A stretch of 64,000 nt of DNA from Gemmatimonas sp. (GTDB lineage: Bacteria > Gemmatimonadota > Gemmatimonadetes > Gemmatimonadales > Gemmatimonadaceae), in the NCBI GenBank assembly GCA_965279375.1, contig OZ257156.1, forward strand, positions 4,640,001 to 4,704,000, given 5' to 3'. This document shows positions 25,084-56,223 of the stretch, piece by piece; the first letter of the stretch is position 1, and each line of letters opens with the position of its first letter. Below the pieces are notes generated by a model. The model was given only the letters and a program-made list of their open reading frames with translations, was not told the DNA's origin and searched no databases. Position numbers and translations under genes: made by a program.

Positions 25084-25215
25084 GGCTGCATGCCTGGCCG
25101 GTAGCCGCGTCCTTTGCTGCAACGCGGCGCGATATTGGAGTGCAGCGAACCGCCGCCACGCGATGATCGACGTGCCTGTCGACCGCTTGTCAGACCCCAT
25201 CTGCACTATTCGCCA

Positions 25216-31300: not shown

Positions 31301-31523
31301 GGGTGCCACGCGCGACGACGATCTACTGGCCGAGCGCTATGCCGTGCAAGCGACCGTGTATCAGGAGGCGGTGCGATCGATCGCGGGAGTCGCGACGTCG
31401 TTCGCGCTGCTCAGCGCACGCGATGGTCGCGTGGTGGAAGTGGACGCCAGTGACGTTTCACTGGCGTCGCTCATTCGGCGGCTACGTGGGACAGACGTGC
31501 GAGGCGTGCCCGCGCTCGACTAG
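28398..31523 (+). CDS. addA: AddA/RexA-like UvrD helicase with C-terminal nuclease
   Basis: AGAGSGKT, ITFTNEAA, TIHGF, VDEFQD, VGDPKQSIYKFR, NFRS, TVHSAKGLE, YVAATRA, IIDVKTG. Confidence 0.88.
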   Translation: MNSSAVSGSETTRHVGLPPLTLAQREVALATDARLLVGAGAGSGKTSTVVQTLCYLLGGIITDVEGNRYTHPSPLQLSDIAAITFTNEAAADLKRKLRSALIACGLREMATDVDAARIGTIHGFCGDLLREFALRAGLPPALSVLADGETTALAYECASRAVQHAAQTQGVTHFDVLLTNRTIADVTTLVVEVASDSDRLLTWESNAANLRAHERALLHLAQIAREYRQEELQRLGAMDFDRMIVAVRDLLRRDERVRHAVQRQVRLLIVDEFQDVDPAQRDLAFLLSGLEFSDPDPSRLMLVGDPKQSIYKFRRADVSLWNDVARRFSESNAGRQLELSDNFRSRRGILGLVDAVVGARLAVPVNLEVGRQSFEVDYHPLRAMGADAEGDRCVEIIAVRAGNDGKARNVGEVRTEEAAAVAARIAELHASGVGHGEMAMLFSGFGAIDIYRAALRERGIPVYILRSDGFWETREVLDCLLALRAIRDTADDVALIGFLKGPFVGLRDDTLMALRAALHANGLWGALAESAVEPELCDRARQMLQRYTALRDRIPVHALLDRLVTESGFLAYLAHDPDRATQAIANIRKLIRKASAAAEQSLGEFLREVAEARVRQDREGEERLYRERADVVTITTVHSAKGLEWPIVFWCDITRGPRERNEPLQCGRAFFRLKSLTDEVDDDGEPIDTRHAELSRSMREEALSEALRLWYVAATRAKRLLVLSGVPLGDKMKGVDNMAAELRRCFPSLATDDPSPEISYVDAQQAPFTLTVRVAAERGVADDASAGDPLAERTHRVPTIALPPVPVVVARGRSRLSATQLMTAAQDASVWWRRYAFGFAPDEQFADASGVSVIARGVVVHEVLDQLTVRRYAAERYDIEELVEWAIERHDPDAPDASSEAGRSYRAQIRALVETAESSDEWRTLASLPTARSELTFTRILRDGSVIDGALDLVAMRGDVARIIDVKTGATRDDDLLAERYAVQATVYQEAVRSIAGVATSFALLSARDGRVVEVDASDVSLASLIRRLRGTDVRGVPALD

Positions 31524-39704: not shown

Positions 39705-39770
39705 CGGCAACACGGCCTCGCCGCCGCCGCGGCGAGGCCCCCACGCCCCGTCCCGCCTTCCCCACAACCC

Positions 39771-39813
39771 AACACGCCTCCGGTCCTTTCCCGACCGGAG
39801 GCGTGTTCGGTTT
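39771..39813 (+). terminator. Strong hairpin, probable terminator
   Basis: AACACGCCTCCGGTC-ctttccc-GACCGGAGGCGTGTT, perfect 15-bp stem; weak U tract. Confidence 0.55.
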
Positions 39814-39856
39814 AACCCGCTCTTGACCGTCTCTTTGCGCCGTCCTAAGGTGGCGA

Positions 39857-42800
39857 ATGAGACTTCTGGTCCAGCACCAAAGCACGTGGGCGTACCCCAC
39901 ACCGGCCGCACTTGGGCCCCATCTGATCCGCCTCGCGCCCGCCAGCCATACGAAGGCTCGGATCGAGACCTTCGGCCTCAACGTCGGCCCCACCGCCGGC
40001 GATATCCGCTGGCAACAGGACCCCTACGGCAACAAGGTCGCGCGCCTCACCTACCCCGCCGGCACTCGCGTGCCCGCGCTTCAGGTGGGCATCGAGTTCA
40101 CCTGCGAGGTCAAGCCGGTCAACCCGTTCGATTTCTTCGTCGATGACCGCTGCAAGGAAGCGCCCTTTGCCTATCCCGCCGAGCTGCAGCCCGACCTCGC
40201 CCCGTTTCTCGACCTGCGCGACGCGTCGTTAACCGGTGGCCCGAAGCTCGACGCGTTTCTAGACGCGCTCCCCCGCGATGGCGACACCGTCCAACTCGTC
40301 GTCGCCCTCAACGAGGCGGTCAATCGCGTCACGCGCTACGTCATTCGCGAAGAGGCGGGCATCTGGACGCCGGAAGAAACGCTCACGAACGGCCGCGGCA
40401 GCTGTCGCGACTCCGCCGTGCTGCTCATCGCCGCGCTCCGCTCCCGCGGACTCGCCGCGCGCTTCGTCAGCGGATACCTGATTCAGCTCACCGACGAAGG
40501 CATGATCCCCGGCGCGCCCAAGGGCGTCTCGCGGGACGTCGTCGATCTGCACGCGTGGGCCGAGGTCTTCATTCCAGGCGGCGGCTGGATCGGTCTCGAT
40601 GCCACAAGCGGACTGCTGTGCGGCGAAGGACACATCCCCCTCGCCTGCACCGCCACGCCGCCGCTCGCCGCGCCGGTCGAAGGCACGAGCGACACGCAGG
40701 CCGAGGGCGTCAGCTTCACAATGCGCATCGAGCGGCTGGGCCACGAGCCGCAGCCCACGCGCCCGTACGAAGAGTCGGTGTGGGAAGCGCTGCTGGCCGC
40801 CGGCGATCGTGCCGACGAGGCACTGCGCGCTGCCGGCCTCACGATGACGATGGGCGGCGAGCCGACGTTCAACGGGCGCGACAACCCGTCGTATCCCGAA
40901 TGGAACGGTGATGCACTGGGCCCCGACAAAACCAAGGTCGGTCGCCGCTTTGCCGCCGGTCTCGTCGAGCGACTCGCGCCCGGCGGCATCATCATGGAGC
41001 GCGTTGGCAAGCAGTATCCCGGCGAGAGTCTGCCGCGCTGGGCGCTCGACATCATCGGCCGACGCGACAGGCGCCCCATCTGGCGTGGCCCCACGCTGGT
41101 CGACCCCACCGGCGCCACCACGGCCGACGCCACGCGCTTCGCTGCCACACTCGCCGGCCGCCTCGGACTCGGCCGCTTCGTCATTGCCGCCTACGAAGAC
41201 CCGTGGCGCGCCCTGCAGGACGAAGCCAACCTCCCCATCGACGTCGATCCGCGTACCGCCAAGCTCACCGACTCGGAAGAGCGCCGACGTCTCGCACGCC
41301 TGCTCGATCGTGGCATCAACACCGAAGTGGGATACGTGCTGCCGCTCACGCGCTTTGAAGGCGCATGGGTGAGTGATCGATGGACGTTCCGTCGCGGCAA
41401 TTGCTTTCTGCTGCCCGGCGACGGACCGATGGGGCTGCGCTTGCCGCTGCAGTCGCTCACGGCCGCATGGGTGGCCGCGCCAACAGAAGCCTCGCTCGAC
41501 GCGCCCGATCCGCGACGCGAGGCCGCACTCAAGGCCGAAGACGAACGACAAGCGCGTTTACGCGCGGCGTTGCAGCGCGTGATTCAAACGCAGCGCGAAG
41601 GTAGCCGACAGACGCAGAGTTCCGTTGGCATCATTGGTGGCACAGTGGTGCAAGGAGCCACGGTGCGCACCGCGCTCTGTGTGGAGGCACGCGATGGTGC
41701 ACTGCGCGTCTTCTTTCCGCCGCTCGAAACGCTCGACGATTTCCTCGCGCTGCTGTCCGCGGTCGATCGCACGTCGCAAGACCTTGGCTTGCCAGTCGCG
41801 CTCGAAGGCTATCCGCCGCCGTCGTCCAACGAGCTGCAGAAGTTCTGCATCACCCCCGACCCCGGAGTGCTGGAGGTCGCACTCACACCCGTCACGAGCG
41901 TGCGTGAACATGCGGCCCTCGTGGACACGGTGTTTGACGTCGCGTTGCATGCGGGGCTACACAGCGAGAAGTATCTGCTCGACGGTCGCATGGCCGGCAG
42001 CGGCGGTGGCAATCACATCACCTTCGGTGGACCGGAGCCGCTCCAAAGCCCCTTCCTGTCGCGCCCTGATCTGCTGGCGAGTCTGCTCACCTTCCTGCAG
42101 CACCATCCGTCGCTGTCGTACATGTTCTCGGGGCTGTTCGTCGGCCCCACGTCCGAAGCGCCGCGCGTGGATGAAGCGCGACACGACGCGCTGTACGAAC
42201 TCGAGATCGCGCTCGACCGCGCGCACGATCGCTCGCAGCCCACGCCCACGTGGCTGACGGACCTCCTGTTCCGTCATCTCCTCGTCGACGTGGCCGGCAA
42301 CACGCACCGCGCCGAGCTCTCGATCGACAAACTCTTCGATCCCAACACGCCGTACGGCCGACAGGGTATCATCGAGATGCGCGCCTTCGAAATGCCGCCG
42401 CACCCGCGAATGATCACGGCGCAGGCGCTGCTGCTGCGCTCACTGCTCGCGAGCTTCGCGCACGAGCCGTATCAGGCGCCGCTGGTGCGCTGGGGACAGA
42501 CGCTGCATGACAAGTTTTTGCTCCCCACGTTTCTCTGGCGCGATTTCGAAGACGTGCTGGGGTTTCTCGACGCGCGCGGCTTCCCGCTTCCTGTCGATGG
42601 CTACAAGCCGTTCGTCGATCTGCGCTGTCCGCTGGTGGGCACACTCGACGCGGGCGACATCGTCCTCGAAGTGCGCAACGCCATCGAGCCTTGGCCGGTG
42701 CTTGGCGAAGAAGCGACACCAACCGGCACGTCGCGCTACGTCGATTCGTCGATGGAGCGCATCGAAGTACGGCTGCGTGGTGCGGTCGCCGAGCGCCACG

Positions 42801-43210
42801 TCGTGCTGGTGAATGGTCACCGCCTGCCGCTACGGCCATCTGGCGTTGCATCGGAGCTCGTCGGCGGTGTGCGATTCCGCGCGTGGGCACCGCCGCACAG
42901 CCTCCATGCGCATCTTGGCATTCATCACCCGATCGCGCTCGACATCGTCGACACGTGGGGGCGTCGCTCGCTCGGCGCGTGCGCCTATCACGTCTGGCAT
43001 CCGGAAGGGCGCAGTTTCGATTCGCCGCCGCTCACCCGATTCGAAGCATCCGCGCGTCGCGCACAACGCTTCACGCGAGAATCGCCGTTGCGGGCGCCGG
43101 TGCAGCCTCGCGAAGCCGCCGCGCACGGCGACGCTCCCTACACGCTCGACCTGCGCCGCTACCCTATCGATCGTCCGCCACCACGCGGTGAGGAGACTGC
43201 CGACTCGTGA
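39857..43210 (+). CDS. Transglutaminase-like domain fused to DUF2126 putative amidoligase
   Basis: WQQDPYGN, NPFDFF, GSCRDSA (Cys), DLHAWAEV, WIGLDATSG, TMGGEPTF, YPGESLPRW, TPDPGVLEV, GGGNH, GNTHRAE, RYVDSS, YHVWHPEGR. Confidence 0.9.
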   Translation: MRLLVQHQSTWAYPTPAALGPHLIRLAPASHTKARIETFGLNVGPTAGDIRWQQDPYGNKVARLTYPAGTRVPALQVGIEFTCEVKPVNPFDFFVDDRCKEAPFAYPAELQPDLAPFLDLRDASLTGGPKLDAFLDALPRDGDTVQLVVALNEAVNRVTRYVIREEAGIWTPEETLTNGRGSCRDSAVLLIAALRSRGLAARFVSGYLIQLTDEGMIPGAPKGVSRDVVDLHAWAEVFIPGGGWIGLDATSGLLCGEGHIPLACTATPPLAAPVEGTSDTQAEGVSFTMRIERLGHEPQPTRPYEESVWEALLAAGDRADEALRAAGLTMTMGGEPTFNGRDNPSYPEWNGDALGPDKTKVGRRFAAGLVERLAPGGIIMERVGKQYPGESLPRWALDIIGRRDRRPIWRGPTLVDPTGATTADATRFAATLAGRLGLGRFVIAAYEDPWRALQDEANLPIDVDPRTAKLTDSEERRRLARLLDRGINTEVGYVLPLTRFEGAWVSDRWTFRRGNCFLLPGDGPMGLRLPLQSLTAAWVAAPTEASLDAPDPRREAALKAEDERQARLRAALQRVIQTQREGSRQTQSSVGIIGGTVVQGATVRTALCVEARDGALRVFFPPLETLDDFLALLSAVDRTSQDLGLPVALEGYPPPSSNELQKFCITPDPGVLEVALTPVTSVREHAALVDTVFDVALHAGLHSEKYLLDGRMAGSGGGNHITFGGPEPLQSPFLSRPDLLASLLTFLQHHPSLSYMFSGLFVGPTSEAPRVDEARHDALYELEIALDRAHDRSQPTPTWLTDLLFRHLLVDVAGNTHRAELSIDKLFDPNTPYGRQGIIEMRAFEMPPHPRMITAQALLLRSLLASFAHEPYQAPLVRWGQTLHDKFLLPTFLWRDFEDVLGFLDARGFPLPVDGYKPFVDLRCPLVGTLDAGDIVLEVRNAIEPWPVLGEEATPTGTSRYVDSSMERIEVRLRGAVAERHVVLVNGHRLPLRPSGVASELVGGVRFRAWAPPHSLHAHLGIHHPIALDIVDTWGRRSLGACAYHVWHPEGRSFDSPPLTRFEASARRAQRFTRESPLRAPVQPREAAAHGDAPYTLDLRRYPIDRPPPRGEETADS

Positions 43211-44679
43211 CAAACAGCCTGCCCTCCAGTCTCTTCGAACGCTATCAGTCACCGCCGGGCACGTATGACGAACTCTTCGACGCCACCGGTGCCGCGCGCG
43301 ACGCGTTTCACCGTGTGCTGGCCGCCCTCGGCGCGTCATCGCCCGAAGACTTCGCCAAAAGTCAGGCGCTCGCCGAAGTGGCAATGCTCAAGCAAGGCGT
43401 CACCTTTTCGGTGTACGCTGACAATCGTGGCACCGAAAAGGTCTTTCCGTTCGATCTGGTACCACGCATCGTCGCCGCGCCCGACTGGCAGCCGCTCGAG
43501 CGTGGGCTCGCGCAACGCGTGCAAGCGCTCGGACATTTTCTGGACGATGTCTACGGCGAGCAGCGCATCCTCCGCGACGGCATCATCCCGCGCGAGCTGG
43601 TGCTGGGCGCACAGCAGTACCTGCCCGTCATTCACGGCGTGAGGCCGGCCGGCGGCGTGCGTGTCCACATCGCGGGCATCGATCTCATTCGCGATGCGGA
43701 CGGCTGCTTCCGCGTGCTCGAGGACAACGTGCGCACCCCCTCCGGCGTGTCGTACGTGCTGGAGAATCGCCTCGTCACCAAGCGCATCTTCCCGCGCCTG
43801 TTCGAGCAGGCGTCAGTGCATCGCGTCGATCACTACCCTACGCGACTCGGCGAAACGCTGCGCAGCGTCTCCCCGCGCGACCCGGATGAATCCACCGTGG
43901 TGGTGCTCACCCCCGGGTCATACAACTCGGCGTACTTCGAGCACAGCTTTCTCGCGCGGCAGATGGGCATCGAGCTGGTGGAGGCGCCGGACCTGTTCGT
44001 CGAGCACGACAAGGTGTTCATGCGAACCACGCGCGGACCGAGGCGCGTGGACGTGATCTATCGCCGCACCGACGAACTCTTTCTCGACCCCGAAGTCTTC
44101 CGCCCCGACTCCGTGCTGGGTGTGCGCGGCCTCATGCGCGCGTGGGCCGCCGGCAACGTGACGTTAGCCAACGCGCCGGGCAATGGCGTCGCCGACGACA
44201 AGGCGATCTATCCGTTTGTACCGGACATGATTCGCTACTACCTCTCGGAAGCGCCCATCCTCGAACAGGTGCCCACGTACGTGTGCCTGCGCGACGAGGA
44301 CCGTCGCTACGTGGTGGACCATCTCAGCGAGCTGGTGGTGAAGGCCGTGGATGAATCGGGCGGCTACGGCATGCTCATGGGACCACAGGCGTCCAAGAAG
44401 GAGATCGACGAGTTCCGCACGCGGATCGAGGCCGACCCGCGCAAGTACATCGCGCAGCCGCGCATCGAACTCTCTACCTGCCCCACCTGGGACCCGAGCA
44501 AGCGCTGCATGGAAGCCCGTCGCGTGGATCTGCGTCCATATATCCTCTCCAATGCGCAGGGCCCGTGGGTGCTGCCCGGTGGCCTCACGCGCGTCGCACT
44601 CGTGCCCGGATCCTACGTCGTCAATTCGTCGCAAGGCGGCGGATCGAAAGACACGTGGGTGCAGAAGGGGGTCGCATGA
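43207..44679 (+). CDS. Circularly permuted type 2 ATP-grasp protein
   Basis: FPFDLVPR, VLEDNVRTPSGVSY, NSAYFEH, NAPGNGVADDK, GGYG, DLRP, VVNSSQGGGSKDTWV. Confidence 0.93.
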   Translation: MTNSLPSSLFERYQSPPGTYDELFDATGAARDAFHRVLAALGASSPEDFAKSQALAEVAMLKQGVTFSVYADNRGTEKVFPFDLVPRIVAAPDWQPLERGLAQRVQALGHFLDDVYGEQRILRDGIIPRELVLGAQQYLPVIHGVRPAGGVRVHIAGIDLIRDADGCFRVLEDNVRTPSGVSYVLENRLVTKRIFPRLFEQASVHRVDHYPTRLGETLRSVSPRDPDESTVVVLTPGSYNSAYFEHSFLARQMGIELVEAPDLFVEHDKVFMRTTRGPRRVDVIYRRTDELFLDPEVFRPDSVLGVRGLMRAWAAGNVTLANAPGNGVADDKAIYPFVPDMIRYYLSEAPILEQVPTYVCLRDEDRRYVVDHLSELVVKAVDESGGYGMLMGPQASKKEIDEFRTRIEADPRKYIAQPRIELSTCPTWDPSKRCMEARRVDLRPYILSNAQGPWVLPGGLTRVALVPGSYVVNSSQGGGSKDTWVQKGVA

Positions 44680-45662
44680 TCTCACGCGTTGCCGACTGCT
44701 GCTTCTGGTTAGGGCGCTATGTCGAGCGCATCGAGGCGACGGCCCGCCTGCTCTCCGTTACGCGCACCTTGGCGATGGACGCCGAGCTGGAGCCGCGGCA
44801 GTGCTGGCTGCCGGTCGTCATCGTGATCGGTGAAGAGCCGCAGTTCATCGACCGCACGACGGAGTCGCCCATCGCGCAGACCTCGGGCGAACAGGTCGAA
44901 CGGTACATGACGTGGGATGAGCAGAACCTCTCCTCCATCAAGGCCTCCATCGCCGCCGCGCGAGAGAACGCACGACAGATCCGCGAGGTGATCAGCCTCG
45001 AAGTGTGGGAGGCGATCAACGAGTTGTATCTCTGGATGGGTGGCGCCGATGCACGCGCTGAGTATGCGAGCGATCGGTACATGTTCTATCGGTTCATCCG
45101 GCAGCGCTGTCAGTTGGTTGCAGGGCTGCTGCGCTCCACCATGCTGCACGAGCTCCCGCTCAACTTCATCTGGCTGGGCATGCTGCTCGAGCGTGCGGGG
45201 CAGACGGCACGCGTGGTTGACGTGCAGCACCACGCGCTGGTGATGCGCGAGCGTGAAAATCAGGTGATCGAGACCGCGCTCTGGCTCTCGCTGCTGCGAG
45301 CCTGCTCGGCGTTCGAGCCGTTCACCAAGCGCAACCGCGGGCGCATCACCGGCGACGCCGTGGCGCACTTCCTGATCTTCGAGCCGCTCTTCCCCAAGTC
45401 CATCGCCTACAGTGTGCATGAGGCATGGCGGCGGTTCATGGTCATTCGCCCGCCGGAAGAGCCGGATCTACCCGGCGCTCGGAGCGCGGAGCGGCTGCGC
45501 GCGCTGGATCGATGGATCGCCGACAGGGCCGCGGTCGGGGCCGCTGGTGACGTTCACGGCATGCTCACACATGTTGTGGATGAAATTGCCGATATTTGTA
45601 CGGACATCGGTGCCGAACTTTTTGGCCACGCGTCCGCCCCCGCCCTGGAGTCTGCGCAGTAA
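44676..45662 (+). CDS. Alpha-E domain protein
   Basis: MISRVAD..FWLGRYVERIE..AR, ARENAR.IRE.IS.E.WE, LG..LERA..TAR, FPKS. Confidence 0.92.
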   Translation: MISRVADCCFWLGRYVERIEATARLLSVTRTLAMDAELEPRQCWLPVVIVIGEEPQFIDRTTESPIAQTSGEQVERYMTWDEQNLSSIKASIAAARENARQIREVISLEVWEAINELYLWMGGADARAEYASDRYMFYRFIRQRCQLVAGLLRSTMLHELPLNFIWLGMLLERAGQTARVVDVQHHALVMRERENQVIETALWLSLLRACSAFEPFTKRNRGRITGDAVAHFLIFEPLFPKSIAYSVHEAWRRFMVIRPPEEPDLPGARSAERLRALDRWIADRAAVGAAGDVHGMLTHVVDEIADICTDIGAELFGHASAPALESAQ

Positions 45663-47491
45663 TGCCCAAGTACCTCGCGATGTCGTTCGAAGGCGACTTC
45701 GCACCCTCGTTCGACCTGCATTGCCTGCGCCCCGGACGTCGCCCCCCTGATGGCTGGGGGCTGGGCTACTACCCGGGCGGTGGACAGGCGGCGGCTGTTC
45801 TCAAGGAACCGTCTCCACCGTTCGGCAGCATTCGCAGTGAGCTGGTGAAGGCGTGGGAGCATCTGGAGTCGTCGCTGTTCGTGCTGCACATCCGCGTGGC
45901 CACGTGGGGCCCAGTCAGCGACGCCAACACACAGCCGTTCGCGCGTAGCTGGGGCGGGCGCGATTGGTTGATGGCGCATGCCGGCAGCCTGACACAGCGG
46001 TTGCCACAGCGTGCAGGGGCGCGCTTTGAAGCGGTCGGCTCCACCGACACGGAACAGCTCTTCTGCGAACTGCTCGACCGCGTTGCAGACATGGGCTGGC
46101 GCTCGCTCGGCGATGCCGACCCCGAGTTGTTGCGTCGCTGGTTCGCGGAAGTGAACGACAAGGGTGTGCTCACCAGTTGCCTCACCGATGGTCGTGATCT
46201 GGCGGTCTACGCCGACGAGCATGGCGACGGCGACGTGTACGTGTGCGAGATCGTGCCGCCGTTCAACGAGATGTCGTTTGGCGATGAGGATCTCACCGTC
46301 GATCTCGGTCAGCGCGGCGTGAAGAGCCGGAAGGGCGTTGTGGTGTCGAGCGATCCGTTGCAGGTGACTGGCATCAAGGACGCCAAGTGGCGCCGGTTGC
46401 CGCCCGGCCATCTGCTGATCATTCGGCAGGGGGCGATTCGCGTGGAAGTCGCACCCCCCGCGAGTGAGACCGCCGACTCCGCGAGCCCGCTGATCACCGC
46501 AGACGTCATGGGACCCAACGGCGCAGAAGCCGCGGTCATCCGCCGCGCGACGACCGTGCATCCCGTCGCCGCGCCGGTGCGCCAGCTCGAGATCGTGCAT
46601 CACACCGTGTATCGCTACAAACGTCCCGTCGAACGCAGCACGCACAACTTGCGTCTCGTGCCGATGCAGGATCATCTGCAGCGCTTGCTGTCGCACACGC
46701 TGACGGTCACGGTCGACGGACAGCCTCTTTCCACGCCGCAAAGCGCAGAGTACGAAGACGTCTTCGGCAATCGCGCGCAACGCCTGCTCATCGAGCGTCC
46801 GTATCACGAGCTCTCGATCGAGTCACGCGCCACCGTCGAGCTGTACGACACCGATCCGCTCTCGTTCCGTCCGTTGCGCGTGCGCTCCTCCATCCCGCTG
46901 GTGTGGATGCCGTGGCAGCGACAGATCCTGCAGCCGTTTCTGTTGCCTCCGGAGCTGCCGGAGAGTGAGCTCAACGAGCTGCTCGACTACGCGATGAGTT
47001 TCGTGAAGCGCAACGATTCCGATCTGCTGGAAACGTTGCTCGACATCAACAACTCGATCTTCCGCGAGTACGCGTATCGGCAAGGCACCACGACGGTCTC
47101 TACGACGCCGTTCGAGGTGTACGTCAACCGCTTTGGCGTCTGCCAGGATTTCACCAACCTCTTCATCTGCCTCGCGCGCCTGCTCGGCGTTCCGGCGCGC
47201 TACGTGTGCGGCTACGTGTACACGGGCCCCAGGCACGTCAACCAACGCCAGTCGGAAGCGTCGCACGCGTGGGTGCAGGTGTACTTGCCCGAAGTGGGCT
47301 GGAAGGGATTCGATCCGACCAACGGCATCCTCACACAGACGGATCACGTGCGCACCGCCGTGGGTCGCAATTACGTGGACGCCACGCCAACGTCAGGAAC
47401 GATCTACGTGGGCGGTGGCTCGGAGTCGCTGTCGGTGGACGTGCGCGTGTCGCCGACGGAAGCGGTGGCAGAGACGGTTGCGGTGGGTTGA
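45662..47491 (+). CDS. Fusion: degenerate class II glutamine amidotransferase (Ntn) domain + transglutaminase-like domain
   Basis: N half: DGWG, HIRVAT, NTQPF, GSTDTE. C half: HHTVYRY, DVFGN, GVCQDF, SHAWVQVY, GFDPTN, GRNY.DATP. Confidence 0.85.
   Translation: MPKYLAMSFEGDFAPSFDLHCLRPGRRPPDGWGLGYYPGGGQAAAVLKEPSPPFGSIRSELVKAWEHLESSLFVLHIRVATWGPVSDANTQPFARSWGGRDWLMAHAGSLTQRLPQRAGARFEAVGSTDTEQLFCELLDRVADMGWRSLGDADPELLRRWFAEVNDKGVLTSCLTDGRDLAVYADEHGDGDVYVCEIVPPFNEMSFGDEDLTVDLGQRGVKSRKGVVVSSDPLQVTGIKDAKWRRLPPGHLLIIRQGAIRVEVAPPASETADSASPLITADVMGPNGAEAAVIRRATTVHPVAAPVRQLEIVHHTVYRYKRPVERSTHNLRLVPMQDHLQRLLSHTLTVTVDGQPLSTPQSAEYEDVFGNRAQRLLIERPYHELSIESRATVELYDTDPLSFRPLRVRSSIPLVWMPWQRQILQPFLLPPELPESELNELLDYAMSFVKRNDSDLLETLLDINNSIFREYAYRQGTTTVSTTPFEVYVNRFGVCQDFTNLFICLARLLGVPARYVCGYVYTGPRHVNQRQSEASHAWVQVYLPEVGWKGFDPTNGILTQTDHVRTAVGRNYVDATPTSGTIYVGGGSESLSVDVRVSPTEAVAETVAVG
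47355..47457 (+). repeat. Direct repeat copy 1 (3' end of the transglutaminase gene; attL-like)
   Basis: Ungapped match to 53773-53875 (offset 6418), about 10 mismatches in 103 bp by manual count; 46-bp identical core at 47391-47436. Confidence 0.92.
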
Positions 47492-47495
47492 GTGG

Positions 47496-50400
47496 TCAGC
47501 TGTTGGGTGGGTCGGGTAGCGTTGTCAGCGCCGTGAGTGCCTGCAGGCGATCGCTATCGTCCGCAAGTTTGGCCAGCTGTAGTTGCGTAGCGGCGAACGC
47601 GGCATCGCGCTGGACGCGGTAGGCCGCGTATTGCTCCCCGCGACGCGTGAGGGTGAGGATGCCGAGTACGGCTCCTGCCCACGCGTCGCCTGCGTCGCGA
47701 CGCTCGCTCAGATGCGCCGAAACAGAAGGCGAGAGCAGCTCCTCCAAGTGGTCCGTCAAATATTCGGACGAGAAGCCCGCAGTGGACCACTCGTGGACGG
47801 CAACTCGCGCGAGCAACGGCGCGTACGCTTCGACGATGCCATCGCTGCGCGCCTTCGCGAGCAGGCCGCGACGCTGCTGGACGGCTGTTGGATTCGCACC
47901 GGCGTCGAGCAACTCGAGCAGGAGCGTATCGCTGCCCGGCTCCAACAGCTCCGGATGCGCCGCGAGATAGTCGCGTGAGTGCGACCAGCTATCCGCGTTC
48001 CACCACGCCACAGCCAGACGATCGAGCGCCGGATCGATGCGCAGCCACTCCGGCACGTCGCCTGCCGCATGTTGCCAGTGTGCATCGAAGACATCCGGAT
48101 ATCTCGCGCGTTCGCGACGTGCAATCATCCGCAGATATCTCGCGCGCCCGCGTACGAGCTCTGGCTCGCTCAGCGCCGCGTGTAGGCAGCGCACAGTTTC
48201 CCCGAACTGCTCAACAGGGCGCGAGCGCAGTATCTGCAGGTTTTCGACAAGCGACGGGTTGTCCGCCAGGGACAGCAGGACCGCGTTCCAGACCGCGTCG
48301 TCGGCGCCCGAGAGCGGCGCAGCCAGCAGTTCCGCCGCTCGCAACTCTCCCTGAGCGATCGCGCGGAGCCGATTGATGCCCTCTGCCATAACGGACGCGC
48401 CCTCATCTTCCGCACCGGTCTCGTTCAGAGCGCGACCCCGAACGATGTATGCCAACGCCAGCGCCACAGCGCTCGCCGAACGTCCAGGACTTTCCAGCAG
48501 CGCGAGCGCACGCGTCGATAGCGAAAGCGCACTCGCGAAGTCGTCAGCCTTGAGCTGCATCAGGCTCAGATTGAAAAGCGCCGTCCCAACCCACCCGTCG
48601 GATACGCCTCGCAGCGAATCCACGTCCAGCAGAGCGAGTGCTTCTTCCAACGACCGGCGGGCATCCTCAACGCGATCGAGCGCAAGCAACGCTGCGCCAG
48701 CGTTGAGCGCGCACACGCCGCGGGGCAACCCCGTCTGCCCGGACGCTTGGTACGGTGCCAGCACCGCGTGCGCTTCCGCCGCGAACGCCAGCGCCTCCAG
48801 CGGCCGCGCCTGCGTCACGCAGCCGCCGGTGAGATCAGCAAGCAACGACGCCAACTGCAGTGCGGACGCCAGCGTACTGATGTGCGCCTCGCGGAAGGCC
48901 TCAAGCGAACCTTCGCGTGCCTCTGCCGCCTCCTCGCTGCGGCCGAGCTGTTCCAGCATGGCGAACAGTCGACCCCACGACGCCACGGTTCCGCGACGAA
49001 CGAGACGATCGGGGGACGAGCTCATCAACGTGATCGCTTCTCGTTGGCGATCGACCAGTACTTCCGTAGCGCCGCCCGTCGCTATCGCAACCGACGTGTC
49101 GACCACGATGCCCAGAATCGCACGGAGCTGCGCGCTGCGCGCCGACGAACGCAGTCTCTCCTCGAGCGACGCGAGTTCGGCGAGTCCCGTCCTCGCGTCC
49201 GTGCTCAGCAATTGCACTGCACGTTCGAGCTGTACCAGCGCCAACGAGACCTGCGCGTCGGCGTTGCTCTCCGCGTGTGGACTGATCAGGCCAAGCGCTT
49301 CATTCAGCAACGCCAGCGGATCGGTCCCGATCGGAGACGCCCAGCCGAGTATCCCTTCGACGCGCATCGTAAAGGCGAGGAGCCGCAACCCTTCCGCCGT
49401 GGCGACGTCGAGAATCGTACCCGTCGCTTGGCGCGCACGGTGCAGTATCGCCACGCGCTCAGCGGCCAGTGGTCGTGGTCTCGTATCCGCAGGCCGCACG
49501 CCAGTAGCACCGCTCTCATAGAGCGCGCCGACAAGCTCGGCCACCTCGATCTTGGCGCGAATCACCAGAGCATCCACCAGCAGGGCGATGCGATGGTCGC
49601 TCGACTCCGTCTCCGCGTCGAGCAGCGTGATCGCGCGCCGGCTATAGCCGTCGGCGCTCGTCATGTCTCCTAGCGCTTGCGCGGACTGCGCCGCCAGGTA
49701 GAGCGCGCGAGGCAGCTCGAATGCGCGCACCTCCGGTTCGTCGACGAGCGACTCGAGCAGTTCGATTGCCTCTTGAGCAACCCGAACAGATGCGCGCGGA
49801 TTTCCGAGCCGCAGTTGTGAAAGCACCCGCGCGGTCAGCGTCCCCGCCAGCGTTCGTCGTCCAGACGATTGCTCGGTCGCGTTGCGCGCGATGTCGGAGG
49901 CCTCCGTAGCCGCGGCATCGGACTCTTCCGATTCCTCCGCGGCGCCCAACGCGGAGGACAACGCGTACAATGCCATCGCAAGCTCCATCGGCACGCCGAG
50001 CTGGCGCTGGATGTCGACGGCCTCTCGTTGCAATTCCACCGACTCCTTCGGCAATCCGCGAAGCAGTGCGGTGCTGCTGACGACCGCCAGTGCTTGGGCG
50101 AGGCTGGGGAGGAACGCGTCGCGATCGCGCTCCACCAGTCGGCGCAATAGGACGATCCCCTCCGGCCCCGCATCCGCGAGATGTCGCCAGGCGTGACGCC
50201 AGAGGTACGGGTGCGCCTTCGGCGGCTGCCCTTGATCGAGCAGGGACTCATACTGCTCCGCGATGGCCGTCGCGATCGCGCGTGCGGCCTCTGGCAACAG
50301 ACGTCGTCCGAGCGCCGCACCGGTCGTGGGCCGCAGATAGTCCACCAAGCGCTGGTGCGCGATGCGAAACACGCCCTGATCGCCTTCGGATCCGGCCACC

Positions 50401-52277
50401 ACGTGGCGAGCGAGCGCGTCGAGCAACGCGTACACATCGTCGCGCTGATACGTTGTGCCGCTGGGCGAGAGCGCGGTCGCCACCGCCGGCCAGACATCAT
50501 CAGGCGGGAAACCGCTTCCCAGCGCACAGGCAAGCGCGCGCATCAGTTCACGTGCCGCGCTGGGGTGTGCGCGACCGCCGATCATGAGCACGGTCTGTTC
50601 GAGGTCGCGTTCGAGCGCCGCCTCCACGCCGGTGGGCAATCGGTCGCGCCAATCCGCGCGACTGGTATCCACTGGTGTCTCGCGCAGCTGCGAGGTCACC
50701 AGCCGCGCGAACAGGAACGGTCCCGCGCCGAGCGGTGCGTCAGCGGCGGCGGCTTCGATGATCGCGTCGGCAACCAGCGTGGGATCCATTTCGCGTGAGA
50801 CGCTTTCCAGTCGACGCACCACGTATCGGCGCACATCCTGCATCGTCTCTGCGGCATCGTCCGCGAGATTGATCGTCTCCCCGGTGGTGCCAAGCAGCGC
50901 CAATAGTCCCGGTTGCCCCGCGCCACTGGAGACCTCGCGCGTACCCACCAATACCAGCGCCTCGCGCGAAAGGGGCTGCACCACTTCGAGTGCGAGATTG
51001 CGGCACTCCGTGTCGCCCGCTTCGTCGAGCCCGTCAAGCACGAGCATGAGCGGCCGTCCCTCACGCTTGCGGCGGGCGGCAAGTCCCAGAATGTCGTAGA
51101 TGCTCGAATCCGCGTCGAGCTCGAGTTGTTGCGCGAGATTCACGACGGCGGTGCGTGTATCCAGTCCACGACAGTGCAACTGCGCGCTCACTGTTCCTTC
51201 ACCTGGATCAAGCGTGTCGGGGATGTCGTCTTGCGTGAGCAGGCGCGCCCGCTCCCAGGAATCAGACAGACTCGCGATGCGCCCGAGAACAGCGGACTTC
51301 CCCGAGCCCGCGGGCCCGGTCACAACACATGTACCCGGCGCTCTGCGCGCGATCCACGACACGATGCGCGACAATACGCTGGTGCGCCCGGTGAAGAACG
51401 AGATGTCGGCTTCCTGCGGCTGGGCGACCGCGCGCTCGTCAGGATCACCCTCCGGCGCCAGGCCTCGCGTACGCACGCGCGAGGGGCCGCGAAGCACACC
51501 ACGTGACGTGCCGCGCGCCGCCTGGAGCAGATGCTCTACCACACGATGCTGCGCCTGCGGCCGATAGAGGGGATTGCGCAGCATCGGCCACGCATTGCCC
51601 GTCGAGGCCTGTTGCGGTGAATGCCGATCCTCCGACCACTCCTTCAACAACGCGTCGATGACATCGTCGCCGCGCACGCGCGCATCGTACACTCCCCAGC
51701 GCAATCGTAAGCGTTCGTCCTTGGGACCTTCGGTGAGCAGTCGCTTGAGTTCGCGCGGCAGCGCACCGCTCAGCGATTCCTCATCGGCGCGCGACGCCGA
51801 CACCACGCCGAACCACGCGGAGCCCGGATCCTTACGTCCGGCGATCACCGCGTCGGCCATGGCGAGGGCCGGCGCCACCCCGCCGCCGGAGAAACAGGTG
51901 TCCACGACCACGAGCACTTGCGACGCGCCGGTGCGCGCGGCCCATGCACCGAGTTGCGCAGCACTCGCCACTTCGTCGTCGCGCACGTCGTCGGCGCGAC
52001 TCATGAGCAGGACGTCGCCGTCCGGCCCCGGCGCTCCGTGTCCGATCCAGACCACCACCAGCACGCCGCCCTGCAGCGATTGCCTGCCGAGCGCCCCTGT
52101 GACCTTCCCCAGCAAATCACCCTGCGTCAGGTCGGCAAGCAGCACGCCGTCGAAACCATGCTCGGTCTTCAGGTGTGTGACCAACTCCGACGTATCAGGA
52201 ACTGCGCGCTGGAGCGGCGCGAGCTTCGCGTATGCCCCGTTTGCGATCGCGACAACCCGGTGCGCCTGCTCGCTCAC
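47496..52277 (-). CDS. Caspase-like (C14) protease - STAND/NACHT-like NTPase - TPR repeat protein, ~1593 aa
   Basis: VVAIANGAY..L..L, WIGHG (His), VVDTCFSG (Cys), SAS; FTGR, GPAGSGKS (Walker A), LVLDGLDEAG (Walker B), LVGTR, FRIAHQ; TPR-like helical repeats; GTGA overlap with the lipase stop. Confidence 0.85.
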   Translation of the reverse strand: MSEQAHRVVAIANGAYAKLAPLQRAVPDTSELVTHLKTEHGFDGVLLADLTQGDLLGKVTGALGRQSLQGGVLVVVWIGHGAPGPDGDVLLMSRADDVRDDEVASAAQLGAWAARTGASQVLVVVDTCFSGGGVAPALAMADAVIAGRKDPGSAWFGVVSASRADEESLSGALPRELKRLLTEGPKDERLRLRWGVYDARVRGDDVIDALLKEWSEDRHSPQQASTGNAWPMLRNPLYRPQAQHRVVEHLLQAARGTSRGVLRGPSRVRTRGLAPEGDPDERAVAQPQEADISFFTGRTSVLSRIVSWIARRAPGTCVVTGPAGSGKSAVLGRIASLSDSWERARLLTQDDIPDTLDPGEGTVSAQLHCRGLDTRTAVVNLAQQLELDADSSIYDILGLAARRKREGRPLMLVLDGLDEAGDTECRNLALEVVQPLSREALVLVGTREVSSGAGQPGLLALLGTTGETINLADDAAETMQDVRRYVVRRLESVSREMDPTLVADAIIEAAAADAPLGAGPFLFARLVTSQLRETPVDTSRADWRDRLPTGVEAALERDLEQTVLMIGGRAHPSAARELMRALACALGSGFPPDDVWPAVATALSPSGTTYQRDDVYALLDALARHVVAGSEGDQGVFRIAHQRLVDYLRPTTGAALGRRLLPEAARAIATAIAEQYESLLDQGQPPKAHPYLWRHAWRHLADAGPEGIVLLRRLVERDRDAFLPSLAQALAVVSSTALLRGLPKESVELQREAVDIQRQLGVPMELAMALYALSSALGAAEESEESDAAATEASDIARNATEQSSGRRTLAGTLTARVLSQLRLGNPRASVRVAQEAIELLESLVDEPEVRAFELPRALYLAAQSAQALGDMTSADGYSRRAITLLDAETESSDHRIALLVDALVIRAKIEVAELVGALYESGATGVRPADTRPRPLAAERVAILHRARQATGTILDVATAEGLRLLAFTMRVEGILGWASPIGTDPLALLNEALGLISPHAESNADAQVSLALVQLERAVQLLSTDARTGLAELASLEERLRSSARSAQLRAILGIVVDTSVAIATGGATEVLVDRQREAITLMSSSPDRLVRRGTVASWGRLFAMLEQLGRSEEAAEAREGSLEAFREAHISTLASALQLASLLADLTGGCVTQARPLEALAFAAEAHAVLAPYQASGQTGLPRGVCALNAGAALLALDRVEDARRSLEEALALLDVDSLRGVSDGWVGTALFNLSLMQLKADDFASALSLSTRALALLESPGRSASAVALALAYIVRGRALNETGAEDEGASVMAEGINRLRAIAQGELRAAELLAAPLSGADDAVWNAVLLSLADNPSLVENLQILRSRPVEQFGETVRCLHAALSEPELVRGRARYLRMIARRERARYPDVFDAHWQHAAGDVPEWLRIDPALDRLAVAWWNADSWSHSRDYLAAHPELLEPGSDTLLLELLDAGANPTAVQQRRGLLAKARSDGIVEAYAPLLARVAVHEWSTAGFSSEYLTDHLEELLSPSVSAHLSERRDAGDAWAGAVLGILTLTRRGEQYAAYRVQRDAAFAATQLQLAKLADDSDRLQALTALTTLPDPPNS

Positions 52278-53662
52278 GCCAACGCCCCGTTCCACACGAG
52301 GAAGGGATGCGTGACCGGTGCTGGACCGCCGGCGATCGCGCCGCTCACACGCGCGTGATAGCCACCGGCCGGCAGTGGTCCGAGCGTTGCCCACCCGTCC
52401 TTGCCAACGACGGTCGCAGGTCCCATCTGCTGCAACCGTTCGTCAAACACCGTGACGTGAAGGCGATCGTCACCTTCGTCATGCACGCGGAGTCGGGGGC
52501 GATCTTCAGGTGACCATAGCTCCGCCATCGAGACGCCGATGGTCGATGGCGCGGTCGACTGCCAGATCACGTCTTCACGCGTGAGCAAGCCGTCGATGAG
52601 ATCGAGCGCGGAACGAGTGCCCTGCAGCTCCCCATGCTGATTGGCAACTTCGAGCACCTCACGATTCCTCCCCTGCACCGGTTGGGAGGCAAGGCGCGGC
52701 ACCGTTCCATCGCCACCCTGACTACTCCCGTCGATCTCCTCCGAAGCGATCAGTCGTCCATGCGACCATGCCGCCGTCGTCAGGGTGGGCTGCCGGATGC
52801 CCACGACCTTGTGGAACGCATACGCGGGCTCCGGCGAGGCATCGAGCGTCGCGTGAAAGGCGAGGGCGTCGTCCTGCATAGCGCGGGAGACGTCGGGGAG
52901 ATCGAGGCCGTGCAGACTTCGACGCGGCACATCAGTACCGAGATCGAGACAGTCGTACGTCGGCAGCAACTGATGCAACGACGGCAGACTGCGAGCGAAC
53001 TCTGTGAGATGGAGATGAAACGGCCCGAGGCTCGGCTCGAGGCCGTTCGACAGCGTATTCAGCGCTTTGAGGGCGCCGCGATGCGGCGTGCCGATGGTGA
53101 TCAGCGTGCGGGTGAAAGCGGCACCTCCTTCCTGCTCGAGAAACCACCGCGCGATCAGTCCGCCCATTGAATGACACACCAGCACGAGGCGCGACTCTTC
53201 CATGCCCGGCTGCTCACGCCAGCGTGCCAGCGCGTCTTCGGCGACGACCTTCAGCAGGCGCGCGTTATAGCGATTCGACAGCCGCCAGTCGTAGGGAAAC
53301 GAAATCAGATTGGGAATGCGATCCGGATCGCGCGGATCGGGCTCGATCATCTGGAAGCGCGTGCTCCGCAAAAACTCGAGTGTCCCATCGTACCCGGTGA
53401 TGGGGCTCCACAGTCCTGGGATCACGTGAAGGCTCGGCAGCAGATGCGTCGCACGAATCCTGTTGCCTGGCGGGGCCTCATCGCCGATGCCGATTGGCAG
53501 TGCGAGCGACTGCAGTGAACCTCCGAGCGTCTTGATCGCGTTGACCAGGCTGCCCGCCTCAAGCGACCAGATCGGCCCTCGCTCCATATGCTCCAGAGCG
53601 CTCCCCATGATGCCGGGGATGACGATGACGACGTCGCGAACGAGATTCGTATCCACAGGCAT
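52274..53662 (-). CDS. LCAT/PGAP1-like alpha/beta-hydrolase (lipase/acyltransferase)
   Basis: VIPGIMGS, FPYDWRLS, CHSMGG nucleophile elbow, GTPHRGA, GDGTVP, QHGEL. Confidence 0.87.
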   Translation of the reverse strand: MPVDTNLVRDVVIVIPGIMGSALEHMERGPIWSLEAGSLVNAIKTLGGSLQSLALPIGIGDEAPPGNRIRATHLLPSLHVIPGLWSPITGYDGTLEFLRSTRFQMIEPDPRDPDRIPNLISFPYDWRLSNRYNARLLKVVAEDALARWREQPGMEESRLVLVCHSMGGLIARWFLEQEGGAAFTRTLITIGTPHRGALKALNTLSNGLEPSLGPFHLHLTEFARSLPSLHQLLPTYDCLDLGTDVPRRSLHGLDLPDVSRAMQDDALAFHATLDASPEPAYAFHKVVGIRQPTLTTAAWSHGRLIASEEIDGSSQGGDGTVPRLASQPVQGRNREVLEVANQHGELQGTRSALDLIDGLLTREDVIWQSTAPSTIGVSMAELWSPEDRPRLRVHDEGDDRLHVTVFDERLQQMGPATVVGKDGWATLGPLPAGGYHARVSGAIAGGPAPVTHPFLVWNGALA

Positions 53663-53772
53663 TGGGCGACCGGCGCGGCGCGCGGCGAGGCAACGGACGG
53701 AACGTCAACTGGGCTACCGCGGAAGAAAGTATCTCCCGCAGGCCATCCGCGTGATAGGGCTACCGCGCGCTT

Positions 53773-53909
53773 CCGACGTGGGGCGCAACGACGTGGACGC
53801 CACGCCAGCGTCAGGAACGATCTACGTGGGCGGTGGCTCGGAGTCGCTGTCGGTCGACGTACGCGTAACCCCGACTGTGCTCGTACCAGAGGCGGCTGGC
53901 GTCAGCTGA
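53773..53909 (+). pseudogene. Direct repeat copy 2: displaced transglutaminase gene 3' fragment with its own stop (attR-like)
   Basis: Encodes DVGRNDVDATPASGTIYVGGGSESLSVDVRVTPTVLVPEAAGVS* versus AVGRNYVDATPTSGTIYVGGGSESLSVDVRVSPTEAVAETVAVG* in copy 1; stop at the same relative position. Confidence 0.85.
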
Positions 53910-53930
53910 GTCGACAAGAAACCGTAGCCA

Positions 53931-54536
53931 TCACTCGGCGCGTCGGTATTCCATGTAGCGCGCCGTGTCGTCGGCCACCGCCTTGCCGTACAGCCGCTCG
54001 ACCATCTCCAGGGACATGTCGATCCCCGCCGAGATGCCCGCCGATGTGACGACGCCATCGTGCACGACGCGCGCATCGCGCTGCACGTCGATGGTGGCGT
54101 CCAGCGAGGCGAGCGCATCGAGGGCGCCCCAATGAGTCGTCGCGCGCTTGTGCGCGAGCAGACCAGTCTGCGCCAACAGCAATGCACCCGAACAGACGGA
54201 CGTGACGTGAGTCGCGTTCGCAGCGGTCGCGAGAATCCAGTCCAACGTCGGAGGGTGTTCCAGCAATGGTCGCGTTCCCCAGCCGCCGGGCACCACGAGT
54301 AAGTCGATCGGTGGTGCCGACGCGAAATCGTAGTTCGGCAGCAATTGTAGTCCGCCGGTCGCCGTCACCGGCCCAGCGCGTTCCGCAACCAGAAATACGG
54401 AGAACGGTGCGCTCGCGTCGCTTCGCCGTGAGTCGAGCCCGGGCTCGAGGCGCGTGCGGGAGAACACCTCAAACGGCCCCGCAAAGTCCAGCACCTCGAC
54501 CTGGTCGAAGACCAGGATACCGACGGTTAGCGTCAC
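53931..54536 (-). CDS. DJ-1/PfpI family protein
   Basis: FDQVEVLDFAGPFEV, VPGG.G, SVCSGA, ATTHW, TSAGISAGID. Confidence 0.9.
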   Translation of the reverse strand: MTLTVGILVFDQVEVLDFAGPFEVFSRTRLEPGLDSRRSDASAPFSVFLVAERAGPVTATGGLQLLPNYDFASAPPIDLLVVPGGWGTRPLLEHPPTLDWILATAANATHVTSVCSGALLLAQTGLLAHKRATTHWGALDALASLDATIDVQRDARVVHDGVVTSAGISAGIDMSLEMVERLYGKAVADDTARYMEYRRAE

Positions 54537-54752
54537 GACTGCTCCTGATAAGACGGAGATAGGACTCTGCGACTACGGCTCCGCATGAATCTCCGATCAC
54601 GCGCTCGAATAGAGAAGTCGGTCGTCCCCGCGTGTGTGTGGTGGGCGATGACGCCACTGGTCCTCAAGAATCCGTGCGCGCAATCCGAGACTGCAGCTGA
54701 GGTCGACGCCGGCCGTGTAGGCACCTCACGCCATTCGCCGGATCTACCTCGC

Positions 54753-56222
54753 ATGCGCATTCCGTTCTTCGCTCCGTCTGACGAAGTCGCTCGTCTCAAG
54801 GCACAACTCGCGCAGGTCACCGAGCGGTCGGATGTTCTCGACCAGTCATGCGGCGTGGGGTTGTGGGACGCAGTGTTGTACAACGCGGACGCGCTCGATC
54901 CGCGCAGCGTGTGGACCTGGTCGCCCGAGTTCCGTCGCCTCATCGGCTACAGCAGCGAAGCGGACTTCCCCAACGTCTGCCAATCGTGGTCGGACAAGCT
55001 GCATCCCGATGACGCGCCTGCCACATTTGCTGCGTTCGGCGGCCACCTCAAGGAGCCCAACGGCACCGGCCACTACGACGTCACCTATCGTCTCAAGATG
55101 AAGGACGGCGAGTACCGCTGGTTCCGCGCCAGCGGCGGCTGCCGTCATTCTGCAGACGGGCAGACCATCCGCGCCTGCGGGTCGCTCACGTTCATTCATG
55201 AGCAAAAGATGCAGGCGCTCAAGATCGAGCAGGATGCGCACTACGATCAGGAGGTCATCGCCGCTCTTGCCGACGGCCTCAAGGCGCTCTCCGACGGCGA
55301 CCTGCGGCATCGCATCGTGGCGGAGGTGCGCCCCACCGCGCAGCCCCTCAAGGACAGCTTCAACGCAACGGTCGAGCAGCTGCACGAAACGATCTCGCAG
55401 GTCAGCGCTGCCTCCTCGCAGGTGAAGAGCGCCGGTGAAGAGATCGCGGACGCGAGTCAGTCGCTCGCGGACGGCGCGACTCGTCAGGCCGCGAGCCTGC
55501 ACGAAGTCACCAGCAGCCTCGACGAGCTGGCATCGATGGCGAGCACGAACGCCACGTCAGCACGCAAGGCCAGCGAGCTTTCGTCGGTGGCGCGTTCCCA
55601 TGCGAGCGACGGCGAAGCACGGATGGCCAACCTCACGGCGGCGATGGCCGACATCAAGGCCTCCACGCAGGAAACCGCCCGCATCATCAAGACGATCAAC
55701 GAGATCGCGTTTCAGACCAACCTGCTCGCGCTCAACGCGGCCGTCGAAGCGGCGCGCGCTGGCGATGCGGGCCGTGGCTTCGCCGTCGTTGCCGAGGAAG
55801 TGCGCTCACTCGCGCTCCGAGCGGCCGCCGCTGCGAAGAGCACGGAAGCGCTGATCGAGAAGAGCGTGACCGCGACTGAACGCGGCGTGCGACTGAACGA
55901 TGAGGTCCTGAGCAGCCTGCAGGAAATCACCGGCCAGATCGCGCAGGTGGTGACCGTCGTGAGTGAGATTTCCGTCGCCAGCACAGGTCAGGTAGATGGC
56001 GTCTCGCGTATCACGCGTGCGGTGGCGGACGTGAACAACATCACGCAGCAGGTCGCTGCCAGCGCCGAGGAGTCGGCGAGCGCCGCCGCAGAACTCAACG
56101 CGCAGGCCAGCACGCTCAACGATACGGTATTGACGTTCGCGCTCGAGGAGGATGTGTTCGGTGAAGCGACACATGCGCCGGCGCGTCGTCCCGCACGCGC
56201 GATGGCGGGACGAGGGCGCTAG
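54753..56222 (+). CDS. Soluble PAS-domain methyl-accepting chemotaxis protein
   Basis: GLWD...[27 protein letters not shown] (PAS); [37 protein letters not shown]; no TM segment. Confidence 0.92.
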
Positions 56223-56223
56223 C

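Follow-up and report, generated by a model that had tools for sequence, protein, structure and literature searches.

A 64,000-nucleotide stretch of contig OZ257156.1 of Gemmatimonas sp. (assembly GCA_965279375.1, positions 4,640,001 to 4,704,000; hereafter the window) lies within a complete 5.31-Mb genome and carries, on its minus strand, adjoining genes for an LCAT/LPLA2-like lipase and a caspase-STAND-TPR protein. Judged from sequence comparison, the pair is a real, mobile and functionally coupled two-gene module. At slightly better than even, we favour a protease-gated lytic module in which the sensor triggers cleavage of a linker in the lipase and so releases a cytotoxic enzyme. Taken separately, processing of the lipase by its partner is probable, activation rather than inactivation by that processing is very probable, and defensive cell death or arrest is the likely outcome. 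The catalytic residues, the domain boundaries, co-inheritance, protease swaps, the match between linker and protease class and the decay of orphan lipases are in hand for this mechanism. An earlier note on this DNA had proposed an inflammasome-like circuit; the functional link between protease and lipase that it assumed is well supported by co-conservation, fusions, the linker motif and the loss of the catalytic serine in orphans, while the anti-phage part is weaker than the note implied.

The lipase gene (52274..53662, minus strand) encodes 462 aa with the catalytic residues Ser165, Asp318 and His343, which lie in the motifs HSMGG at 164, GDGTV at 317 and QHGEL at 342. The triad is intact, as the earlier note had read it. 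The protein matches Pfam LCAT (PF02450) with 48 bits, above the cut-off of 21. Its structure model, built from a 50-sequence alignment, has a mean predicted local distance difference test score (pLDDT) of 89 and a predicted template modelling score of 0.91, and is confident except for residues 365–370, where pLDDT falls below 50. The top fold matches are lysosomal phospholipase A2 (LPLA2), LCAT and Tle4. The model superimposes on LPLA2 (4x90) with Z 28.4 and a root-mean-square deviation of 3.5 over 319 aligned residues at 20% identity, and on the type VI secretion lipase Tle4 (4r1d) with Z 24.0. Because the LPLA2 match spans residues 8–363, the protein is an LPLA2-sized enzyme followed by a linker and a seven-stranded β-sandwich. 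The catalytic α/β-hydrolase domain thus takes residues 1–361 (52580..53662), the linker residues 362–375 (52538..52579, beginning REDVIWQST) and the β-sandwich residues 376–456 (52295..52537). The C-terminal extension of about 90 aa that had been noted is resolved by the model into this 14-residue low-confidence linker and the sandwich of about 80 residues. Between YDWRLS and the nucleophile elbow the model has one helix only, residues 130–149. Phospholipase A or acyltransferase activity would be in keeping with the fold, which by itself does not establish function. The β-sandwich, which we propose to be a removable or inhibitory domain, had no named family or look-alike in Atlas, a result to be read with the fact that the fold searches barely tested that domain. 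The linker has low model confidence yet is conserved, and is the proposed cleavage region: among 40 lipases, Arg362 is kept in 36, Trp367 in 36 and Gln/Glu368 in 38, and the residue after Gln/Glu368 is Ala, Gly, Ser or Asp.

The partner gene (47496..52277, minus strand) encodes 1593 aa, and its GTG start overlaps the lipase TGA in the sequence GTGA at 52277–52274, so that the two-gene operon with a GTGA overlap described before is borne out. Homologues start at the 52277 register, which led us to reject a longer GTG start at 52394. A caspase-like domain occupies residues 1–240 (51558..52277), the STAND NTPase module about residues 295–720 (50118..51395), and the helical TPR-type sensor with a C-terminal helical domain the remainder (47499..50117). 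The caspase dyad and the Walker motifs were rightly called intact: GHG is at 79, DTC at 126, GPAGSGKS at 321 (Walker A, 321–328) and LDGLDE at 414 (Walker B, ending 414–419), and His80, Cys128 and both Walker motifs are invariant or nearly so across homologues. In profile searches TPR_12 scores above its cut-off, the NTPase just below and the caspase weakly (E 3e-9, below cut-off); the caspase homologue at locus L003 matches Pfam Peptidase_C14 above cut-off. The caspase part is matched by 79 proteins, and those with Pfam data bear NTPase and/or TPR families. About 850 aa had been described as TPR-like; the region is helical and has TPR support at 687–853 and 1023–1253, but the last 270 or so residues have no TPR match. 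The sensor is the least conserved part, with mean identity of 27–38% against 52–60% for caspase and NTPase. At the caspase-NTPase junction lies a 31-aa in-frame insertion (51408..51500) with three Arg-Gly dipeptides and no second copy in the genome; it may be neutral or may serve for self-cleavage. Neither protein has an evident signal peptide or membrane helix (maximum 19-residue hydropathy 1.38 for the lipase and 1.66 for the partner), in line with the earlier description of the lipase. We detected no homology between the two proteins and found no paralogue of either in this genome.

The two genes are inherited together, and the lack of co-conservation that the earlier note would have counted against its reading was not seen. 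Among 301 genomes of one genus there are at least 15 matches to the partner family, a lower bound set by a stricter first-pass search. Twelve of them have the caspase part and all 12 adjoin a lipase; a 13th has a transglutaminase-like N-terminus and a lipase beside it as well, and neither of the two without a cysteine-protease N-terminus has one. From the side of the lipase, 53 loci scoring at least 115 bits were compared (weaker loci were left out as more distant families). A cysteine protease stands beside the lipase in 40 of them, 16 caspase-type, 6 CHAT and 18 transglutaminase-like; in the others the STAND gene is cut at a contig end (2), the flank is too short (10) or there is no such gene (1). 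The 38 lipase matches examined out of 77 in the genus sample comprise 29 paired, 1 cut and 8 orphan genes. A further 15 close lipase and caspase homologues are found on contigs of the same size, and we take them to be adjacent. Lipase and caspase identities correlate with r 0.94 over 49 pairs, a value reached in 0 of 999 permutations, which shows co-inheritance only.

The distribution is patchy. The lipase was not found in 300 genomes of the same phylum. Another phylum has it in 8 of 401 genomes (a count that takes in the centre genome and the unpublished genome G408, which enters no other claim here), one large-genome actinomycete genus of that phylum has it in 60 of 301 genomes, and it occurs in 34 plasmid records. 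Viral contigs gave only distant lipases of different build.

The lipase stays constant and its partner changes. Partners include caspase-STAND proteins with TPR or WD40 repeats, stand-alone caspases, CHAT proteases and proteins with a transglutaminase-like domain, and the sensors are swapped among TPR, WD40 and HEAT types. Among longer lipase homologues, 12 of 14 are lipase-CHAT fusions; P0219, in which caspase-STAND and lipase are joined, may be an assembly artefact and was left out of this count. In the trees, lipase clades follow the partner class. The transglutaminase-like domain has an invariant Cys, His and acidic residue in 10 of 10 aligned sequences, gives a match to the N-terminal part of NCBIfam antiphage_ProA in each of the 9 cases tested (at scores far under the whole-protein cut-off) and resembles DUF4011/Transglut_core cluster models with template modelling scores of 0.74–0.85; we infer that it is a protease. 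This Cys-His-acid domain takes the N-terminal place of the caspase in a variety of proteins, STAND and other, at loci L021, L022, L027–L033, L035, L036, L041, L043, L049, L100, L107, L108, L112, L138, L155, L162 and L163. At L038:2233–3999 the gene after a distant lipase homologue encodes a trypsin-like peptidase, which might represent a fourth class of protease.

The linker changes with the protease. Lipases paired with transglutaminase-like partners have Arg-Gly in the linker in 19 of 22 cases, against 2.6 expected from other windows. Of 10 CHAT-paired lipases, 5 have an aromatic-Arg step, and so do the 3 fusions displayed. The clade studied here has Trp-Gln/Glu-small, and caspase subclades each have their own motif. 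Near the S1 pocket of the caspase, residues seem to change with the linker (acidic at 169/170 beside Arg linkers, Arg/Leu-Ser beside Gln/Glu linkers), a post hoc correspondence with exceptions (L003). In one caspase subclade (L104, L105 and L110), Asn replaces Asp two residues before the catalytic Cys and the lipase linkers read GPDQA, so a different specificity is possible there.

Lipases that have lost their partner tend to lose the nucleophile. The catalytic Ser is kept in 83 of 83 paired lipases and is replaced by Gly in 7 of 9 orphans with full flanks. These seven (L142, L143, L144, L145, L148, L159 and L160), which may be decaying or reused pseudo-enzymes, form two lineages, each nested among paired relatives. 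One lineage sits between sucB and aceE, a site where relatives retain both genes; here a Ser-bearing orphan is basal and five Gly orphans are derived. One of the Ser-to-Gly changes took two base substitutions (TCG to GGG). Queries of 8 orphan-bearing genomes brought up no close partner at another place, G864 having been queried only with the protease of the other lineage. This decay after partner loss ties lipase catalysis to the protease, and is by itself compatible with activation of the lipase as well as with its restraint.

From these observations and the biology of related systems we propose the following sequence of events. At rest the STAND protein would be an inhibited monomer. Once its TPR region had bound a trigger, for which a phage protein is the likeliest candidate, the NTPase would oligomerize and activate the N-terminal caspase-like domains, as in Avs/NLR-like proteins. 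The caspase would cut the lipase within linker 362–375, most likely after Trp367-Gln368, with Arg362 as the alternative; conservation and covariation are what point to this segment. The cut would free the LPLA2-sized enzyme from the β-sandwich. Judging by its fold, the freed lipase would hydrolyse membrane phospholipids, and the cell would be killed or arrested.

Several observations weigh against this mechanism. Enrichment of linker Arg-Gly is weak where the partner is a caspase (10 of 49 lipases, with 5.9 expected) and absent where it is a CHAT protease (2 of 10). The transglutaminase-paired rows are related, with only 2 to 4 label changes needed on the trees, so the motif counts overstate independence. 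Gln or Glu, as in this clade, would be an unusual P1 for the clan to which the protease belongs, and Arg362 is an equally conserved candidate. Two orphans, L140 and L113, retain the catalytic Ser, and the Ser-to-Gly orphans have, in several genomes, intact open reading frames (ORFs) with ratios of non-synonymous to synonymous substitution of about 0.3–0.6, not cleanly distinct from those of paired genes. The lipase homologues L014:8857–10389 and L016:3253–4743 have twin-arginine-like N-termini, and the TPR-CHAT genes next to them open with signal-peptide-like sequences; this suggests export and not death inside the cell. Neither the lipase nor the partner matches any PADLOC 2.0 model. When PADLOC was run on 114 of 169 selected neighbour ORFs at 21 homologous loci, in a count made without a background control, it gave 6 generic matches and no system, and the neighbours that could be identified are mostly housekeeping genes. 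The expected co-occurrence with defence islands was therefore not seen at these 21 loci. The location of the pair in an inserted cassette had also been taken to support a defence role; with no PADLOC match and no other recognizable defence gene in the larger insertion, that support is weaker than implied. Defence-like neighbours occur at some plasmid loci only, and transposon genes on some plasmids. On plasmids NZ_CP147715.1 and NZ_CP034999.1 (L109 and L111) a lipase-CHAT pair lies beside an S8 peptidase gene in both, with AbiEi/AbiEii nearby in one and the transposon genes TniQ/TniB in the other. Architecture, patchiness, sensor swapping and some of the plasmid contexts speak for defence, and the evidence on this role is, on the whole, indirect and mixed.

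The same proteolytic switch could serve developmental cell death, a stress response or lipid signalling, the sensor then responding to a signal from the host. The missing defence-island context, prolonged persistence at the same housekeeping sites within one genus, the frequency of the lipase in large-genome actinomycetes and the seemingly exported variants all fit such a role, whereas very patchy presence, plasmid and transposon settings, fast exchange of sensors, the rapid evolution of the sensor region and the resemblance of the transglutaminase-like partners to the N-terminus of an NCBIfam anti-phage protein are typical of, or point to, conflict systems; we regard a role outside phage defence as unlikely but deserving of some weight. 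The orphans bear on a different arrangement, a guard or toxin-antitoxin logic in which a lipase that is active from the outset is kept in check by the partner, through binding or degradation, until sensing lifts the restraint. Loss of the nucleophile after loss of the partner in two lineages, once through two base changes, is what would be expected if an unguarded lipase were toxic. But the Ser-intact orphan L140 is basal to the Ser-to-Gly clade and L113 is Ser-intact too, which implies that an unguarded lipase is tolerated; moreover, the conserved, protease-specific motif lies in a linker between domains, at which cutting would set the enzyme free in intact form, and the published analogues are activated by cleavage. 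We consider restraint distinctly improbable.

Cleavage could also be dispensable, the caspase itself cutting host or phage proteins while the lipase acts as a co-effector activated by binding or oligomerization. Effector-independent defensive caspases are described in the available passages of bioRxiv 10.1101/2025.11.14.688446, and cutting of the lipase by its partner is our deduction from sequence. This arrangement leaves unexplained why three unrelated cysteine-protease classes alternate beside the same lipase and why the linker motif changes with the protease class, and we hold it to be very improbable. A different matter, compatible with any of these readings, is whether the family works as proposed and this copy is impaired or decaying. 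The 31-aa partner insertion is missing from all 21 homologues shown, and the partner itself ends early: it has 54 residues beyond position 1540 where 25 of 26 homologues have 116–174, a shortfall of about 70 aa, and its stop codon falls on the last bases of the left flanking repeat. Both points count against this particular copy. On the other hand, neither ORF is interrupted and every catalytic residue is present, the insertion is in frame within an inter-domain linker, and the closest homologue is short too (65 residues past position 1540), so we give decay of this copy little credence.

Protease-gated effectors of this kind are known, and the release of a lipase by linker cleavage favoured here follows their logic. 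The earlier note had allowed that related protease-hydrolase pairs might be reported, and a caspase-activated α/β-hydrolase of a different family is indeed published. In the available passages of bioRxiv 10.1101/2025.11.14.688446, LcCaspase cuts the adjacent 296-aa α/β-hydrolase LcHydrolase at two Arg-Gly sites, Arg73 and Arg117, in an insert before the nucleophile elbow, and yields a toxic product. Both systems have a caspase-like protease (here with intact His80/Cys128 and conserved adjacency) adjoining a Ser hydrolase, and partners joined to a range of sensors, WD40 and STAND among them, and the Arg-Gly cleavage motif recurs in the linkers of part of the present family. However, LcHydrolase has neither LCAT-type motifs nor a C-terminal β-sandwich, whereas the lipase here is 462 aa long with a β-sandwich and, compared by eye and not aligned, has no insert before the elbow. 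Two cuts in that insert contrast with one proposed cut after the catalytic domain, and the partners here are also CHAT and transglutaminase-like. The lipase family could be among the neighbourhoods of Fig. 4A of that preprint, as far as its available passages go. The passages of PMC7159879 predict caspase and α/β-hydrolase pairs and mention rare transglutaminase-like peptidases in VMAP systems; two of its supplements gave no match. No lipase, hydrolase or LCAT term occurs in the passages and searchable supplements of PMC13581612, and the pair is not described in the passages of PMC8195603, PMC10907252, PMC13069673 and bioRxiv 2020.01.06.895854. Searches of full-text literature, in which most papers under subscription are not included, turned up no account of an LCAT-like effector that goes with STAND proteases.

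Among other relatives, Avs/NLR-like STAND systems (VcAvs2-MBL, SsAvs4-Pepco and KrAvs12-EACC1) likewise combine an effector gene and a protease-STAND-repeat sensor in one operon and share the effector-STAND-repeat architecture, with Walker A/B intact in the partner here. They differ in that the effector here is a lipase and the loci tested lack defence-island context, and no PADLOC or NCBIfam Avs model matches the partner, in libraries that may lack the newest Avs families. LPLA2/LCAT (PF02450) and Tle4 share the fold and the Ser-Asp-His triad; compared with LPLA2/LCAT, the lipase here, with predicted activity, has no signal peptide, carries the extra linker and β-sandwich and lies beside a protease. 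EACC1-caspase systems resemble the module in having a constant latent effector, a caspase/CHAT partner with variable sensors and the membrane as likely target, but that effector is a pore former and here it is an enzyme. There is no EACC1 gene in the module, and the partner scores 36.5 bits against model NF047832, below the cut-off of 140, with a lipase as the upstream gene. Bacterial gasdermin-protease systems have the same layout of a constant latent effector and a caspase/CHAT partner with variable sensors, their effector being pore-forming; there is no gasdermin gene in the module.

The module works like published protease-gated effectors and falls outside the characterized hydrolase family; the gating logic is already known, and the LCAT/LPLA2-like effector family appears new. 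We offer only tentatively the broader possibility of a fifth widespread protease-gated class: an LPLA2-like zymogen with one inter-domain linker that has been adapted to cysteine proteases of three unrelated folds, proteolysis by transglutaminase-like (ProA/DUF4011-type) domains under STAND control, a switch of this clade's caspase to Gln/Glu and, at this locus, an integrase-less 3′-end cassette. If the favoured mechanism is right, enzymatic membrane destruction by an LCAT/LPLA2 relative would join pores, nucleases and one hydrolase of unknown substrate as outputs of protease-gated immunity, and the transglutaminase-like STAND N-terminal domains would gain a predicted substrate and cut site. 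Matched protease and linker pairs would also be a natural panel for the evolution of specificity in the caspase clan, in a family that is common in one genus and yet missed by PADLOC.

The pair belongs to a larger accessory insertion (39705..56223). The earlier view of an inserted cassette holds: the segment is missing from 4 of 4 genomes of the same genus, and it is an insertion because its flanking genes adjoin each other in all four. Its cargo is a DUF2126/ATP-grasp/Alpha-E/transglutaminase operon, the pair, a DJ-1/PfpI gene, a small ORF and a chemotaxis receptor. No integrase was found among its scanned ORFs. Within it, a 144-nt direct repeat brackets exactly the lipase and the partner, with no other gene between the copies. 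The left copy (47355..47498, plus strand, core 47391–47436) coincides with the final 44 codons of the glutamine-amidotransferase/transglutaminase gene. The right copy (53773..53916, plus strand, core 53809–53854), 110 nt from the lipase start, is a detached in-frame second gene end with its own stop. The copies are 81% identical with a 46-nt identical core, and codon by codon 26 are identical, 8 synonymous and 10 changed; the genome has two occurrences only (E 2e-34). This looks like the pattern left by a circle that integrated into the 3′ end of a gene and restored the gene end. Contigs break at the repeat core, and read depth over the module is close to that of the flanks. The pair itself is covered by contigs from four runs of one sample, with no listed differences. 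Three related transglutaminase operons have neither pair nor duplication, but have other neighbours, and none of 6 homologous loci has a bracketing repeat, so the attachment-site-like repeat cannot as yet be called typical of the family. Neither this repeat nor the partner insertion and shortened C-terminus figured in the earlier note. Composition was rejected as evidence: GC content at third codon positions of the pair is 0.74–0.75, below its neighbours, and was dropped because it lies within the genome range (mean 0.774, sd 0.068). Promoter and terminator scans found nothing.

Other features of the window and of the homologous loci were recorded in passing. The operon at 39857–47491 (plus strand) is a complete set of DUF2126, circularly permuted ATP-grasp, Alpha-E and glutamine amidotransferase-transglutaminase genes, and among 200 other genomes of the order its last gene is matched in 3 only. 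A 20-nt hairpin, 95% complementary with a 7-nt loop and probably a terminator, marks the left edge of the insertion (39766–39812). Two long helicase/nuclease-like ORFs of 1094 and 1041 aa at 25114–31523 (plus strand) are unmatched in four relative loci. Among the homologues, the modules at L004:1–1442 (lipase C-terminus), L107:10422–15087 and L110:3493–7904 (STAND genes) are seemingly frameshifted or split, and at L010:11108–11934 a four-copy tandem repeat of about 189–193 nt lies downstream of the lipase.

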